From IMG/VR virus record IMGVR_UViG_2740892214_000001: 20,518 nucleotides of DNA, one strand, 5' to 3'. The notes beneath the pieces were generated by a model. It searched no databases and was not told where the DNA came from. It was given only the letters and a program-made list of their open reading frames with translations. Source of the stretch: a virus. Taxonomy: Duplodnaviria > Heunggongvirae > Uroviricota > Caudoviricetes. Within the stretch, counting starts at the first letter, position 1. Each line of letters starts with the position of its first letter. The translations under genes and the position numbers were made by a program. Positions 15,468 to 20,518 of the stretch are shown piece after piece.

Positions 15468-15961
15468 TACTCCTCCTGCTGTAATTCCTCCTCATCATCC
15501 GCACCTGCTTCAGTCACCCGCAGGGCTATCTGATCGCGCAGATCATCAATAATGGACTGAACACGGCTCACAGCGGCAGGCTGCAGACCGCAGTCACGTT
15601 CAAGAATATCCGGTAATGTCTCCAGCACCTGCACGACCGCTTTTGCCCAGATGGCAAACTCCCGTCTGACATCACTGGCCGGAATGAGTTGTGCCGTTTC
15701 CTGTTCGAACTTAAGACGCTCACGTTCAGACTGATACCAGGCTTTGCGCTCATGCGCGTCCATTTCGCCTTCTGCAACCGGCGGTGGTAATGCCAGAAAT
15801 GCCGACACAATATCAACCACCCGATAAAGCTTGAGGTTGCTTTCATGCCCCCCTGCAACGGGTAGATTTTGCAGCCTTGCCGCAGCAGTCTGGCGATGTA
15901 CACCTGACAGTGCCGCCAGTTGACTGATATTAAGCGTCAGATTTTTTAACTCTCGATCCAT
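15467..15961 (-). CDS. Terminase small subunit (Nu1-like, N-terminal HTH, acidic C-terminus)
   Basis: 164 aa immediately upstream of and coupled to the large terminase; N-terminal LNISQLAALSGVHRQTAAARL is HTH-like; GGAG SD 7 nt upstream; lies about 175 nt downstream of the cosN candidate. Confidence 0.7.
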   Translation of the reverse strand: MDRELKNLTLNISQLAALSGVHRQTAAARLQNLPVAGGHESNLKLYRVVDIVSAFLALPPPVAEGEMDAHERKAWYQSERERLKFEQETAQLIPASDVRREFAIWAKAVVQVLETLPDILERDCGLQPAAVSRVQSIIDDLRDQIALRVTEAGADDEEELQQEE

Positions 15962-16064
15962 ACCCGCTCCAGAATGTTTTAAACATGCATCTTGCGAACA
16001 ACTTTAGGCAAACGGTGTTAGTGATGAACAAAAAACAATCAAAATCGACACTACAAAAATAAAA

Positions 16065-16152
16065 CCACTGTAATATCAATCTATTACAGTAGTGGTGATG
16101 ACGAATGAAATTTCAAAAACTAGCCTTTTTCCGCGACGCTCCCGCCCCGTGG
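16065..16152 (-). other. Candidate cos site: cosN-like sequence (12-nt cohesive-end candidate GGGCGGGAGCGT on minus strand, plus 16136..16147) and cosB-like AT-rich region with a palindrome (16065..16095)
   Basis: Minus strand ACGGGGCGGGAGCGTCGCGG matches lambda cosN region ACGGGGCGGCGACCTCGCGG (as recalled) at 16 of 20 positions; followed by an AT-rich segment and a shared TTCGTCAT motif; distance to the terminase start is about 175 nt (lambda about 190). Confidence 0.55.
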
Positions 16153-16414
16153 CAGGCCACCCCACCGGAAGGACCCGCCAAAATGAGAGTGATTATCACC
16201 ATTGCTGATGAATAAATTGATGAAAATCATTGAAACGCCTTTCAGCAAGATAACGGCGACGGTCGTTGTTGAACTCCGTAACTCTGCTACTAAGGTTAAA
16301 AGCATGGCCATCTTTTGCCACCGGCAAATCTTCAATGGATTTCCCCTGCCGGTTTTTTATTCCTCACATTATCGCAGCCCCTCAGTGAAGGGCTGCTGTA
16401 ATGCCTGCTGTTAC

Positions 16415-16798
16415 TCAGTAACGACCGCGCCTTCCGGTAATTTCATACCGGCAAATACCGGACAGCCCGGGGATCGTTATCTGCAGCTGGTTAGCCAGGG
16501 AGTTAATCTCAGCGACCAACACTGGCTTCGTATAGCGCCATGCCGCCAGCCCTTGTCCACAGAAGCTCGCCATATCTTTTTTCTGATCAAACTCATGACA
16601 CTTCATATTGAGCTGCGCACTTAAGCTGTTGCGATGCTGAAGTTCTCCGGTGAAGTAGTCATCCAGGACTTTATAGGCTGCATATTTAAATCCGGGGTTT
16701 AGCCATGCTGCATAATCATAAGCAACAAACTTCCCGCCATATGTTCCACCGTGTACACCGCGCTCAGTAAAAACCACAGATTCGTGTTTTTTCTCCAT
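16415..16798 (-). CDS. Hypothetical protein (127 aa) between Rz and cos; possible KilA-N-like fragment
   Basis: ORF begins directly after the Rz TAG stop in the same frame, with no SD. Segment GTYGGKFVAYDYAAWLNPGF loosely resembles the conserved KilA-N motif (GTWVHP.LA..FA.WLSPEF) as recalled. Status as a functional gene is uncertain. Confidence 0.4.
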   Translation of the reverse strand: MEKKHESVVFTERGVHGGTYGGKFVAYDYAAWLNPGFKYAAYKVLDDYFTGELQHRNSLSAQLNMKCHEFDQKKDMASFCGQGLAAWRYTKPVLVAEINSLANQLQITIPGLSGICRYEITGRRGRY

Positions 16799-17266
16799 CT
16801 ACTTAATGCGCTGGGTGCGGATATATTCCTGCGCCCCTTCCAGTTGCTTCTGCATCGTCATCAACCGTTCTCTGAGGGTGAAATAATCCCGTTCAGCGGT
16901 GTCTGCCAGTCGGGGGCTGGTTGCATTATCCATGCTGGTGGGTCCGGTGGCTTCACGCACGGCTGCGGAGCAACTGGCATTGACCCGCAGGCGCTTACGA
17001 CCAGCGGCAACATCAGCGCGCAGAGTTTCATTTTCAGTTTTCGCATCGGCTAACTCCTTCGTGTATTTTGCATCGATCGCAGCAACATCACGCTGACGCT
17101 GCTGCATGTCAGCGATGGTGGCGGTCGCCTGCTTCAGCTCACTGACTTTTTTATCACGCTGTTCTTTGTAGGCGATGGCGTTATCACGGTAATGATTAAC
17201 AGCCCATGACAGGCAGGCGATGATACAAATAACCAGAGCGGAGATAATCGCGGTTACTCTGCTCAT
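16799..17266 (-). CDS. Rz: Rz i-spanin
   Basis: 155 aa; [36 protein letters not shown]...[27 protein letters not shown] matches lambda Rz; start overlaps the R stop (ATGA). Confidence 0.95.
16861..17046 (-). CDS. Rz1: Rz1 o-spanin lipoprotein, embedded in the +1 frame of Rz
   Basis: 61 aa with signal/lipobox LVVSAC and proline-rich [30 protein letters not shown], matching lambda Rz1 as recalled. Confidence 0.85.
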
Positions 17267-17739
17267 ACCTCAATCTCTCTGACCGTTCCGCCTGCTTCTT
17301 TGAATTTTGCAATCAGGCTGTCAACTTTATGCTCGAACTGACCATAACCAGCGCCCGGTAGTGAAGCCCAGATATTGCTGCAACGGTCGATAGCCTGACG
17401 AATATCACCGCGATCAATCATCGGTAAAGCGCCACGCTCTTTAATCTGCTGCAGAGCTACAGCGTCCTGGCTTTCTGGAGAAAAATCTTTCAGGCCAAGC
17501 TGTTTACGGTAAGCATCCCACCAGCGTGAAAGAAGCTGGTAACGTCCGGCGGCTGTTGATTTGAGTTTGGGGTTTAGCGTGACAAGTTTGCGAGGATGAT
17601 CGGAGTAATCCGTGAATAACTCACCACCTACAATAACGTCGTAGCCGTGATTGCGGGTTGGCTGTCGCCCGTTATCCGTTCCTTCTGACCACGCCAACAT
17701 ATCGAGGAAAGCTTTACGCTGGGAATTTAGTACCTGCAT
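17263..17739 (-). CDS. R: Endolysin R (lytic transglycosylase)
   Basis: 158 aa, near-identical to lambda R from residue 6 onward ([57 protein letters not shown]...); AAGGAG SD upstream. Confidence 0.95.
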
Positions 17740-17742
17740 AAA

Positions 17743-18078
17743 TTACTCCTTAGAGCCACCAAACTTGTTACCGATTACTCGCATTGCAGCCCCACGAATA
17801 GCATCGACACCGATCAGCCCCACGCCGCCACCAATGGCAACAGAAAGTGATTTAGGCCATCCGACATACTCAAGAGCGGATGCAAAGGTCAGCGTCAGAG
17901 CGCCACAGAGCAAAATCTCGAGCGTTTTTCGCTTCCAGCCACCACCACCGCCAAAATAGGCGATGCGCAAACCAGCCATAACGATCGACATAATCACTGC
18001 ACCCAGCGGCGTGTCTCCACGCCACCAGCTCTGAAACAACTCCAGCCAGTCCGGCCAGGTATTTGGGTTATGAGGCAT
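17743..18078 (-). CDS. Class I holin, 3 predicted TMDs (not lambda S-like in sequence)
   Basis: Start trimmed to ATG 18076..18078 (MPHNPNTW...) because the track ORF N-terminal extension contains the terminator hairpin. Three hydrophobic segments; immediately upstream of R with a 3-nt gap. Confidence 0.6.
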   Translation of the reverse strand: MPHNPNTWPDWLELFQSWWRGDTPLGAVIMSIVMAGLRIAYFGGGGGWKRKTLEILLCGALTLTFASALEYVGWPKSLSVAIGGGVGLIGVDAIRGAAMRVIGNKFGGSKE

Positions 18079-18121
18079 TTCGTCATCTCTCACCTCGCGA
18101 TATTTGCGGGTGCAGTGTTGG

Positions 18122-18147
18122 AAATAAAAAGGCCACGCAACGTGGCC
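18122..18147 (-). terminator. Intrinsic terminator between the methyltransferase and the holin (minus strand); possible tR'-like element
   Basis: Perfect 7-bp stem GGCCACG-UUG-CGUGGCC followed on the minus strand by UUUUUAUUU; begins 8 nt after the methyltransferase stop. Confidence 0.6.
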
Positions 18148-18154
18148 ACCAGAA

Positions 18155-19207
18155 TTATTTCCCCACCAGTTCACTTACCTCTTTCACCGTCTGATTAAAC
18201 CGCTCTGACTCAAGTTCAACACCTAACGCCCGACGCCCCAGCGCCATTGCTGCTTTTATTGTGGAACCGGATCCCATAAAGAAATCAGCAACCAGATCAC
18301 CAGGGCGACTACTGGCATTGATTATTTGCCGGAGCATATCCGCCGGTTTCTCGCACGGATGTTTACCCGGGTAGAACTGAACGGGTTTATGCGTCCAGAC
18401 ATCGGTATAAGGCACGGAGACTGATACGGAGAAATAGCGCCGGAGAGATTTAAACTCATCCAGCAATTCAGAATATTTGCGATTCAGTGAATCATAAGAT
18501 GCCACCAGCTGGTGGTGTGGTTGTTCCAGTTGTTGTTCCTGAAACTTCTCTGCCGCTATACGGGAAAACAGTGCCTGTAACTTCCGATAGTCAGCCTCAT
18601 TCGGCAACTGCCACTGACTGGCACCAAACCAGTGGGAAACCATATTTTTCTTACCTGTGGCTTCGGCAATTTGTTTTGCCGTTATACCCAGTTCGGCACG
18701 AGCATCCCTGAAATACGATATCAGCGGTGCCATTATGTGCTGTTTGAGTTCCCTTTCTTTTGCTGCATAGCCGTCACTTTTGCCGCGATATGGCCCCTGG
18801 TAATGTTCAGCAAACAGAACGCGCTCTGTGGCAGGAAAATATGCGCGCAGACTTTCTTTATTACACCCATTCCAACGTCCGGACGGCTTCGCCCAGATGA
18901 TATGGTTAAGCACGTTGAAACGTTCACGCATCATGATCTCAATATCAGATGCCAGGCGATGCCCACAGAACAGATAAAGGCTTCCGGCAGGTTTTAACAC
19001 CCGCCAGAACTGGGCCAGACAGTGGTCCAGCCACTTAAGGTAATCTTCGTCCCCTTTCCACTGATTGTCCCAACCGTTGGGTTTCACCTTGAAGTACGGC
19101 GGATCGGTAACAATCAGGTCAATGGAATCATCAGGCAGGGACTGAATAAAATGCAGGCAATCAGCGTTGATTAAATCAACACTGTTTATTTTTACAGTAT
19201 TTTTCAT
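18155..19207 (-). CDS. DNA amino-methyltransferase, beta-class (N6-adenine or N4-cytosine), orphan
   Basis: 350 aa; DPPY motif (IVTDPPYF) near the N-terminus and AdoMet-binding FxGxG (DFFMGSGST) near the C-terminus; no adjacent endonuclease-like ORF; weak SD. Confidence 0.85.
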   Translation of the reverse strand: MKNTVKINSVDLINADCLHFIQSLPDDSIDLIVTDPPYFKVKPNGWDNQWKGDEDYLKWLDHCLAQFWRVLKPAGSLYLFCGHRLASDIEIMMRERFNVLNHIIWAKPSGRWNGCNKESLRAYFPATERVLFAEHYQGPYRGKSDGYAAKERELKQHIMAPLISYFRDARAELGITAKQIAEATGKKNMVSHWFGASQWQLPNEADYRKLQALFSRIAAEKFQEQQLEQPHHQLVASYDSLNRKYSELLDEFKSLRRYFSVSVSVPYTDVWTHKPVQFYPGKHPCEKPADMLRQIINASSRPGDLVADFFMGSGSTIKAAMALGRRALGVELESERFNQTVKEVSELVGK

Positions 19208-19357
19208 GGATCAGTAAGCGTAACTCTGGTAGGCTCACTCTGCTTTTGCGCTAAAGCAGTGGGCCGTGGTTCGCTTGTGACCAGTAAGCATGAGCGAATG
19301 GCTGGCAGGTGCTACCAACACCCACCAGCCGCCCATTTTCACAGCAGGAAACCGCCA

Positions 19358-19585
19358 TTACTGGCAGCGTCTGAATTTATTCCCGTACCCGCCGTTATCC
19401 TTCGCCAGCCCCGCCAGAACTAACTGAGTCAGTATTAACTGGCACCGGGCTTCGCTTACTCCGGTAGTTCTCGTCATCATGCGTGGCGTTACCCACTTGT
19501 CAGCAGGTAAGAAATGAAGGACTGCGGCGGCGGTTTCTGTCATATCTTGCTGTTTTAGCATGTCTTTTTCCCTTCTGGTTAACAT
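19358..19585 (-). CDS. Small hypothetical protein (67-75 aa) with HTH-like segment; possible DNA-binding regulator
   Basis: Segment TPRMMTRTTGVSEARCQLILTQLVLAGL looks like a helix-turn-helix; start ambiguous (19585, or 19561 with AAGGGA SD); lies upstream of the methyltransferase. Confidence 0.4.
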   Translation of the reverse strand: MLTRREKDMLKQQDMTETAAAVLHFLPADKWVTPRMMTRTTGVSEARCQLILTQLVLAGLAKDNGGYGNKFRRCQ

Positions 19586-19683
19586 GACATACCAATAACT
19601 CTTGTCTAAAAAGCCAGCAAGATAAAAAGTCAGTATTCACGACCACCAGCGTGTTTACTGTACTGCACCAAGTTTACAGGTAC

Positions 19684-19705
19684 AAAAAACCCGCTCAGTG
19701 GCGGG
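19684..19705 (-). terminator. Intrinsic terminator downstream of the 207-aa cargo ORF (minus strand)
   Basis: Minus strand CCCGC-CACUGA-GCGGG followed by UUUUUUGU; about 130 nt after the ORF stop at 19838. Confidence 0.55.
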
Positions 19706-19837
19706 TTTAAGTTGTGTGGCGAAGTAACCACTCTTAACACACTAATAGCATTTTTGTTATAACACAAGTAGCTCATTCAGTATTTTTAGAATCTTGACTT
19801 TCTTAAGCACGGCGAACTCTGAATACCAAACATAAAA

Positions 19838-20461
19838 TCAATTATCTTCCAGGCCGGATGCTATCAACGAAAGCCTCTCAAAAAACGCTGTAGCAGCCTT
19901 GTCCAAAGTTGAATAAGTACTGTATTCTCCGTGTTCGGGACCAACCACTACCCATGGTCGTCTTTTTGGGATTCGGGATTTCTCAGAAATCACTGTTCCA
20001 GATATACCAATATCAATTGTTACACCTGTTATTATTTTCTCTTCATCTCTTTCCCTGAACTCAATTGCCATAAATGCCGTTTTTTTTCGTTTCCCGTTTT
20101 TAAAAAAATCAAATAAAGCAAAGCGATGCTCATTAAAATCAACACCCCATCGTCCTTCAGGATAAAGGGCATGAAAGTTGTCATTTACGCTCTGCATCGT
20201 CTCATAAGCTTTAACTTCTAAATCTCCATAGTGCATAGATACCGCGCAGGAGTTACTGGGTAACTGTATTTTCCCAAGATTGAAAACCTTTACTGCTCCA
20301 GAACTATGGCATCTTGCCCGCAACTTATCCCCATTTATACTAATCGGAGAAATATTCCTTAATGTTCCGGGCTGGCTCCCTCCTAAGTAAACGACTGTTA
20401 AAGATTGCTTATTTTCAATTGCATCAACTAATACATGCTCTACACTGAGAGATCCCCTCAT
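19838..20461 (-). CDS. Hypothetical protein (207 aa), orphan cargo ORF in a low-GC island
   Basis: Uninterrupted 207-codon ORF with GGGG SD-like element 5 nt upstream of the ATG; local G+C clearly lower than the rest of the window (about 38% in a counted 60-nt sample vs roughly 60% in the tape measure gene); no recognisable motif; own downstream terminator. Confidence 0.6.
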   Translation of the reverse strand: MRGSLSVEHVLVDAIENKQSLTVVYLGGSQPGTLRNISPISINGDKLRARCHSSGAVKVFNLGKIQLPSNSCAVSMHYGDLEVKAYETMQSVNDNFHALYPEGRWGVDFNEHRFALFDFFKNGKRKKTAFMAIEFRERDEEKIITGVTIDIGISGTVISEKSRIPKRRPWVVVGPEHGEYSTYSTLDKAATAFFERLSLIASGLEDN

Positions 20462-20518
20462 AATTTCCCCAAAACGTAACCATGTGTGAATAGATTTTGA
20501 GTAAGCAGGGTTGCAGCC

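Follow-up and report, generated by a model that had tools for sequence, protein, structure and literature searches.

Why does a lambda-like prophage carry a DNA methyltransferase gene between its late switch and its lysis genes, and what is the hairpin that follows this gene? We addressed this question in a viral DNA stretch of 20,518 nucleotides (IMG/VR record IMGVR_UViG_2740892214_000001; Duplodnaviria; Heunggongvirae; Uroviricota; Caudoviricetes), referred to here as the window, in which the methylase gene lies on the minus strand at 18155..19207. A preliminary description, made from the letters alone, had proposed an orphan beta-class enzyme used for anti-restriction or epigenetic control, followed by a strong terminator in the position of lambda tR'. 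We favor the reading, with a probability of roughly 0.7, that this orphan enzyme, a beta-class N6-adenine DNA methyltransferase from the M.EcoGI/M.EcoGII clade, is resident as first cargo in the late operon of an SfV/mEp460-type lambda-like Escherichia coli prophage.

An orphan methylase of the M.EcoGII family

The gene encodes 350 amino acids (aa) from an ATG start and corresponds to orf48 of phage SfV and to the "DNA methylase" of phages mEp460 and Ayreon. Its open reading frame (ORF) matched the Pfam family PF01555 (N6_N4_Mtase) with E=1.3e-42 and 146.6 bits against a cut-off of 26.7, and the match spans profile positions 1-220 of 221. A DPPY motif lies near the N-terminus (aa 35-38) and FMGSGST near the C-terminus (aa 310-316), which is the motif order of the beta class, so the class first proposed was borne out by both the family match and the order of DPPY before FxGxG. 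The nearest solved structures were the beta-class enzymes RsrI, MboIIA, CcrM and DpnA, to which the protein aligned in two parts, with an insert between about aa 115 and about aa 280 containing the central recognition domain.

It has been reported that M.EcoGII, a beta-class enzyme of 349 aa carried by an E. coli O104:H4 C227-11 prophage, methylates adenine whatever the surrounding sequence, that it blocks many restriction enzymes, and that it is one of "a very large family" of E. coli prophage enzymes "likely exploited to overcome host restriction" (PMC5778455). M.EcoGI and M.EcoGII were silent in the lysogen, leaving no trace in its methylome, and harmful when expressed constitutively (PMC5778455). 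We found that the window methylase is identical to M.EcoGII at 283 of 349 residues over the full length (81%) and to Anc291, a reconstructed ancestor, at 310 of 348 residues (89%); both reference sequences were machine-read from the supplement of PMC11551740, and the identities are therefore approximate within a few residues. On these alignments the window methylase is a member of the M.EcoGI/M.EcoGII clade.

The absence of a partner endonuclease from the window, as originally described, was confirmed: no restriction-nuclease domain was found in any window ORF, and the sole nuclease domain was that of the terminase gpA; the other ORFs encode lambda-like head, tail or lysis proteins. We then scanned one genome per species and obtained 80 loci at 62-93% protein identity in Enterobacterales, in genera ranging from Escherichia and Salmonella to Providencia, Morganella, Photorhabdus and Xenorhabdus. 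No endonuclease adjoined the methylase in these 80 related loci from other species, where the neighbors were holins, Q proteins and phage cargo. The window gene is flanked by a 67-aa winged-helix-like protein (orf47) and a holin, not by the cognate endonuclease of a type II restriction-modification system, and the methylase is a prophage-borne orphan with no cognate endonuclease beside its gene.

The same scan revealed a conserved gene context. The next ORF downstream encoded a holin, drawn from five Pfam families, at 40 of 78 loci; at 7 loci it encoded a Tad2-like (Thoeris anti-defence) protein and at another 7 a DUF7823 protein. Upstream, orf47 was present in 60 of 78 species loci, and the second upstream ORF was a Q antiterminator in 34 of 74 (PF06530 in 19, PF06323 in 9 and PF03589 in 6) and a DUF1133 protein in 14. 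In an Stx2a phage, which has the closest phage relative of M.EcoGII (93%), the order is Q, orf47-like gene, methylase, three tRNAs and stx2AB. The methylase is thus a conserved occupant of the interval from the late switch to the lysis genes, and this position, kept across genera, argues strongly for late, Q-dependent expression.

This arrangement is already known, as SfV orf48 with its annotated terminator and as part of the M.EcoGII family. The 2.1 kb around the methylase are 97-98% identical at the nucleotide (nt) level to mEp460_4F5, vB_EcoM-720R4, SfV, cdtI, Ayreon and mEp460, and they share 99.6% identity with an E. coli E189 prophage. The SfV record (GenBank U82619, 2002) gives the order Q, terminator, orf47, orf48 (the methylase), terminator, S, R, Rz. 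Both terminators are annotated in SfV and in Ayreon, so earlier annotators had noticed both of the hairpins discussed below.

A model of lytic expression would connect these features. RNA polymerase that initiates at the late promoter in the lysogen would stop at a hairpin upstream of orf47 (hairpin 1), so that orf47, the methylase, the lysis genes and the virion genes would stay off; such a block fits the observed silence and toxicity of M.EcoGI and M.EcoGII. Upon induction, Q-loaded polymerase would pass hairpin 1 and continue through orf47, a leader, the methylase and the hairpin behind it (hairpin 2) into S-R-Rz and the head and tail genes. Before packaging, the methylase would then turn adenines of the replicating phage DNA into N6-methyladenine (m6A) with little if any preference for sequence, and progeny DNA would thereby be shielded from many m6A-blocked type I, II and III restriction systems. 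Hairpin 2, at the 3' edge of the mobile two-gene cassette, would be a second stop for polymerase lacking Q modification, whether it had leaked past hairpin 1 or started spuriously within the cassette, and would prevent it from entering the holin and endolysin genes. By analogy with M.EcoGII, anti-restriction protection of progeny DNA is the most likely role of the methylase.

Two hairpins bounding the cassette

Hairpin 1 (19684..19708, minus strand) is predicted to fold as AAACCCGC-CACUGA-GCGGGUUU followed by a U run, and it is annotated as a terminator in SfV and Ayreon. It has been reported that in the cassette of Q, pR', sigma-dependent pause and terminator, tR' is the first terminator past pR' and the pause element (bioRxiv 10.1101/651190). 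In SfV-type loci, 106 nt separate hairpin 1 from the end of a lambda-family Q gene (PF03589), and this interval contains TTGCAT-17-TAAGAT-6-AACGATGGG, with hairpin 1 about 45 nt later; this matches lambda pR', which is TAAATT-6-AACGATGGG. In Stx2_14040, a PF06530 Q gene ends about 75 nt before the same hairpin 1. Since hairpin 1 directly follows Q/pR' modules in SfV-type and Stx2-type phages, we assign the role of tR' equivalent, by sequence, to hairpin 1 and not to hairpin 2. The placement of hairpin 2 in the lambda tR' position, as first suggested, did not hold: it is hairpin 1 (19708-19684) that adjoins the Q/pR' modules, and hairpin 2 is not the first terminator past pR' and the pause ahead of all late genes, since orf47, a 150-nt leader and the methylase separate the two hairpins and hairpin 2 lies about 1.5 kb downstream.

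Directly upstream of hairpin 1, a short transcribed leader common with Q21-type phages (GUGUUAAGAGUGGUUACUUCGCCACACAACUU; 19709..19750, minus strand) marks a candidate late promoter start. An extended -10-like TGcTATTAG lies at 19750-19742, ahead of this short late leader, and four sequence classes diverge just upstream of GTGTTAAGAG, each with a -10-like hexamer there. The TGcTATTAG site was not called by a consensus promoter scan, which performed at chance level (5 sites versus 5.6±2.4) and could not locate pR'. In the E. coli E189 prophage, the nearest relative and otherwise almost identical to that of the window, a 123-aa PF06530 Q gene lies immediately beyond a low-GC ORF that is also present in the window, that is, just past the window end. 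This fits the preliminary description, which had pointed beyond the window for Q; the window itself offers only the extended -10-like site. For the window copy we infer the late promoter, its Q dependence included.

Hairpin 2 (18121..18147, minus strand) has the form GGCCACG-UUG-CGUGGCC followed by UUUUUAUUUC. The methylase stop codon TAA (18157-18155) is followed by 7 nt (TTCTGGT) and then by the stem-loop GGCCACG-TTG-CGTGGCC (18147-18131), a perfect 7-bp stem with 6 G-C pairs and a 3-nt loop. Its U-tract, TTTTTATTTC at 18130-18121, holds 8 U in 9 nt, and this anatomy is seen on the coding strand only; a stem and loop followed by UUUUUAUUU, 7 nt past the TAA, is the shape of an intrinsic terminator. 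The hairpin alone has a predicted dG of -11.3 kcal/mol, and its 66-nt context gave z = -2.4, with 5 of 200 shuffles folding equally well. The perfect 7-bp hairpin with its U-tract, past the stop and before the holin, is therefore as the preliminary description had it, but calling it "strong" overstates its canonical terminator shape.

Hairpin 2 is also annotated as a "putative" rho-independent terminator in the SfV and Ayreon records, and the same hairpin occurs in 70 of 80 close loci, 27 times ahead of a lambda-type S gene and 43 times ahead of an S21 pinholin. Across the species loci, a strict terminator pattern was found within 60 nt after the methylase stop in 24 of 80, compared with 4.3% of random windows and 10.3% of the positions after other ORF stops, a 3- to 7-fold enrichment over controls; the scan is strict enough to miss both lambda tR' and hairpin 1, and its negatives were not used. 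In other genera, hairpins with different stems (among them GGGUCGC/GCGGCCC, GAGGCGAC/GUCGCCUU, AAACCCGC/GCGGGUUU, GGGCUCGC/GCGGGCCU and GGCCCGC/GCGGGUC) lie at +5 to +10 past the methylase stop, each with the same UUUUUAUU tract behind it. The support for hairpin 2 thus comes from its coding-strand position 7 nt past the stop, its annotation in SfV and Ayreon and its enrichment in relatives. A search of window positions 15900-20518 against Rfam 15 at E<=1 returned nothing for hairpin 1, hairpin 2 or the leader; the sole match, to STnc130 on the opposite strand (30 bits versus a gathering score of 55), was treated as chance.

Homology breaks among close relatives coincide with these elements. 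The IMG/VR scan gave only relatives at least 99% identical, which were used for mosaic junctions and not for covariation. Among 83 close loci, breaks recurred at 19705-19708 or 19735-19746, and at 18091 (52 of 83), a mosaic boundary just past hairpin 2. Because the breaks coincide with the two hairpins, the mobile unit consists of hairpin 1, orf47, the leader, the methylase and hairpin 2, with hairpin 1 as its 5' boundary. Taken together, these results suggest that hairpin 2 is most likely a real but ordinary intrinsic terminator that would insulate the lysis cassette from non-Q-modified polymerase and mark a module boundary. The consensus scan called no promoter-like site between hairpin 2 and the holin, so the lysis genes should depend on antiterminated upstream transcription. 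Such dependence, which had been proposed to act through hairpin 2, stands for lambdoid phages generally, but nothing in it is specific to this hairpin.

Hairpin 2 could alternatively be something other than a working terminator, such as a 3' stabilising or processing hairpin, or a recombination scar joining the methylase and lysis cassettes. The break at 18091, the occurrence of the same hairpin before two unrelated holin types, the short stem with its modest folding energy, a pattern that is common by chance and the strict terminator found in only 30% of family loci are all consistent with this alternative. We nevertheless regard it as unlikely, because the perfect G+C-rich stem is followed by its run of U on the coding strand only, and because other genera combine different stems with the same U-tract at the same offset and at a frequency well above controls.

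Sequence preference and timing of expression

The lack of site specificity that we ascribe to the window methylase is an extrapolation from homology. It has been reported that Anc291 is active and non-site-specific, as are deeper ancestors down to the node common with the sister clade (PMC11551740). Furthermore, homologues in O111 Shiga toxin-producing strains, 93% similar to M.EcoGI and M.EcoGII, were classed as non-specific and left no motif in the lysogen methylome, and strains with two such homologues showed no additional motif (PMC6602927). It is also conceivable that the enzyme is site-specific, with an uncharacterised recognition sequence, and guards against one restriction system. The divergence from M.EcoGII, which includes the target-recognition region, would allow this, and M.PflMI, the nearest site-specific relative of the clade, shows that specificity can shift in the wider family (PMC11551740). 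The 89% identity to the non-site-specific Anc291 and the classification of the O111 homologues argue against it, and the database name "site-specific DNA-methyltransferase" is an automatic label; we consider a site-specific enzyme improbable.

Membership of the M.EcoGI/M.EcoGII clade also bears on how the gene can be assayed. No methylation motif is expected from an enzyme of this clade, so a motif-based test is the wrong assay, and the absence of a motif, which had been named as grounds for refutation, is not valid as such. A comparison of methylation between lysogen and cured strain should be negative even if the anti-restriction hypothesis is right. Since the clade is non-specific and silent in the lysogen, epigenetic control in the lysogen is unlikely; of the two roles first proposed for the orphan, anti-restriction remains likely and epigenetic control does not.

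The weakest alternative, in which the cassette is an autonomous moron that has its own promoter, ends at hairpin 2 as its terminator and is active in the lysogen, where it regulates host or prophage genes epigenetically, is very improbable: it draws on the discrete mobile module bounded by hairpins, on one promoter-like site inside orf47 (19503-19476, coding strand) and on the regulatory functions of other orphan methylases such as Dam and CcrM (PMC5778455), but promoter-like sites occur at chance frequency, M.EcoGI and M.EcoGII are traceless in the lysogen methylome and toxic if constitutive, the O111 homologues add no motif (PMC6602927), the cassette matches the phage backbone in GC content and not foreign cargo, and the position between Q and holin is kept across genera.

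Several observations weigh against the reading that we prefer, in which the methylase is late, Q-dependent anti-restriction cargo bounded by terminators. The window methylase differs from M.EcoGII at 19% of residues, including the target-recognition region. Upstream of hairpin 1 the window departs from validated pR' regions, both a low-GC ORF and an IS10-like element stand between hairpin 1 and wherever Q lies, and the window prophage may be defective. As for hairpin 2, a simple terminator pattern is not rare in the region (6 sites versus 5.0±2.3 in shuffles), and about 70% of methylase-family loci are without a strict terminator, including those where tRNA or stx genes follow. Because a terminator is present in only about 30% of relatives and in none where tRNA or stx genes follow, it is dispensable for the methylase and may be a mere feature of the module boundary. 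Finally, the start codon of the methylase, without a Shine-Dalgarno sequence and behind a structured leader, may add a layer of control beyond Q antitermination.

The value of this analysis lies mainly in correct annotation: genes of this kind, present in thousands of E. coli genomes, are almost certainly of the M.EcoGII type and non-specific. If they are expressed only in lytic growth, surveys of lysogen methylomes miss them. The family context, in the order Q, winged-helix protein, leader, methylase and then holin or stx, places broad-spectrum anti-restriction in the same Q-controlled slot as Shiga toxin and anti-defence genes.

The leader RNA, neighboring genes and known systems

The 150 nt between orf47 and the methylase ATG (19208..19357, minus strand) are strongly conserved, more so than a spacer should be, and are predicted to form a structured 5' leader, with a three-tier hairpin (P1) and a second domain. 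Among 24 genus-level relatives its mean pairwise identity is 79%, compared with 68% for the methylase gene (80% at codon positions 1+2 and 45% at position 3), and it is 100% identical between the window and Stx2c phages, in which the methylase region is only about 90% identical. In the RNAalifold prediction, the basal helix of the second domain (GGUCAC-AAG / CUU-AC-UGAUC) ends 1 nt before the AUG. Pairs changed on both sides numbered 8 of 35, compared with 2.5±1.3 in shuffles (0 of 500 reached the observed value), and 96.6% of the alignment cells were paired, compared with 29-43% with slid partners. A covariance model detected the element in 53 of 78 assessable species loci (E<=1e-24), ending right at the start codon of the methylase, and the model-fitted alignment held 14 covarying pairs versus 5.3±1.5, with the covariation coming mostly from a few clades. 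A helix, UUCGCU/AGCGAA, crosses the basal helix of the leader and holds the best covarying pair (C-G 11, U-A 4, A-U 3, U-G 3), which points to a pseudoknot or to alternative folds. G.U pairs make the fold specific to the sense strand.

We found no Shine-Dalgarno sequence before the methylase start codon. A leader peptide in the 150-nt spacer was rejected, as the ORF from the conserved AUG has 3, 7 or 18-38 codons or stays open, depending on the species. Among the 40 of 60 carrier phage records listed, the leader either has no RNA annotation or is overlain by an automatic "hypothetical protein" call, and a literal search for its sequence in the literature gave no match. The leader RNA, seemingly undescribed, may thus be the only part of this locus that is new, and the data are suggestive of an extra control layer.

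A weak match to the leader model was found in phage lambda itself, between tR' and S (45001-45129; L164 1202-1330), with 24.4 bits and E 7.8e-4 in 739 kb. Compensatory changes (GGCUGG/CCAGCC to GGCAGG/CCUGCC) preserve the three-tier hairpin at this site, and GUUUUG follows it. This degenerate first hairpin between lambda tR' and S suggests that the lambda late leader is a relic of a methylase cassette. We tentatively propose, as a possibility somewhat short of an even chance, that the leader of about 130-150 nt, as a pseudoknot or a two-state switch, gates the toxic methylase beyond Q antitermination, acting with orf47 or in response to a metabolite or to the methylase itself, and that the lambda late leader is what remains of such a cassette. 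If functional, the leader would explain how phages keep the methylase harmless and would be a new cis-regulatory element for an enzyme widely used as a biotechnology reagent.

The upstream partner of the methylase, orf47 (19358..19561, minus strand; 67 aa), belongs to phrog_331, which has no assigned function. Sub-threshold matches to winged-helix families (DprA_WH, TrmB, MarR_2) in 20 of 38 homologues suggest that it is probably a winged-helix protein, and it could control the methylase or handle m6A-modified DNA. An AlphaFold model made without an alignment reached pLDDT 57, too poor for a fold search, and lambda orf-64 was rejected as a homologue (E=0.95).

Downstream, the first lysis gene is a lambda-family holin S (17743..18078, minus strand; PF05106, E=5.9e-27), whose ATG at 18078 lies 42 nt past the U-tract of hairpin 2. 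It is followed on the same strand by the endolysin (17263-17739) and Rz (16799-17266; PF03245, E=7.4e-50); the lysis genes also matched phrog_126 and phrog_90, in agreement with the E189 annotation. Past Rz, the minus-strand order of small and large terminase, portal, protease-capsid and tail genes is that of a lambda-like late region. Between Rz and the small terminase we noted a 127-aa ORF (16415-16798, minus strand) with an ORF11CD3/Rha-like regulator domain and, past it and ahead of the terminase genes, an A+U-rich 12-bp terminator-like hairpin (16093-16064).

At the other end of the window, the low-GC ORF (19838-20461, minus strand; 207 aa, GC 38-41%) belongs to phrog_8498, with no assigned function, and has a weak WYL-domain match. 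Only about 24 of 5426 E. coli genomes have it in this place, between Q and the late leader, which makes a moron or cargo gene probable. The window closes with 78 nt (20441-20518) from the end of an IS4-family ISVsa5/IS10-like element, of which a genome may contain up to 45 copies; the insertion adjoins the WYL-like ORF at its 5' end, where it has taken the place of the native first codons.

Three further observations concern the distribution of such genes. The slot between Q and holin seems to gather counter-defence genes, as in the 7 loci with a Tad2-like protein. Many Stx2a phages (records H67-H79, for example NC_049918 25405-25503) keep only the last 34 or so codons of an M.EcoGII-like gene; these fragments are annotated "DNA methyltransferase" and look like a remnant left after replacement by other cargo. 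Phage N15, a linear plasmid-prophage, carries in its gene 52 (NC_001901 41387-42433) a homologue of M.EcoGII with 55% identity.

The locus can be compared with four known systems. The SfV block, from its first terminator through orf47, orf48 and the second terminator to S, R and Rz, is essentially the same DNA as the window. They differ upstream, where SfV has a lambda-family Q gene and pR' directly adjacent and the window instead has the low-GC WYL-like ORF and the IS10-like end. The resemblance to M.EcoGI and M.EcoGII extends to an N-terminal DPPY, a central helical recognition domain, a C-terminal FxGxG, a length of 349-350 aa and the status of prophage-borne orphan, and a close relative of M.EcoGII occupies the same Q-proximal late position as the window methylase. 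Copies of the M.EcoGII type in Stx2 phages are followed by tRNA and stx genes with no terminator hairpin, whereas the window copy is followed by a terminator-like hairpin and the lysis cassette.

With the lambda pR'-tR' region the locus shares a logic in which one or more terminators cut the lysis genes off from a constitutive late promoter until Q-loaded polymerase overrides them. It differs in that hairpin 2 of the window is not the first terminator past pR', a role that hairpin 1 would fill. Lambda has further terminators downstream of tR', and hairpin 2 resembles those. The window cassette also occupies the Q-to-lysis insertion slot known from Stx phages, with the order Q, pR', tR', tRNAs, stx and S, and would depend in like manner on read-through by Q. 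Relatives of the methylase are found in this slot alongside stx2 and, in other species, alongside Tad2-like anti-defence genes; the cargo is a toxin in Stx phages, whereas the cargo in the window is a DNA-modification enzyme.

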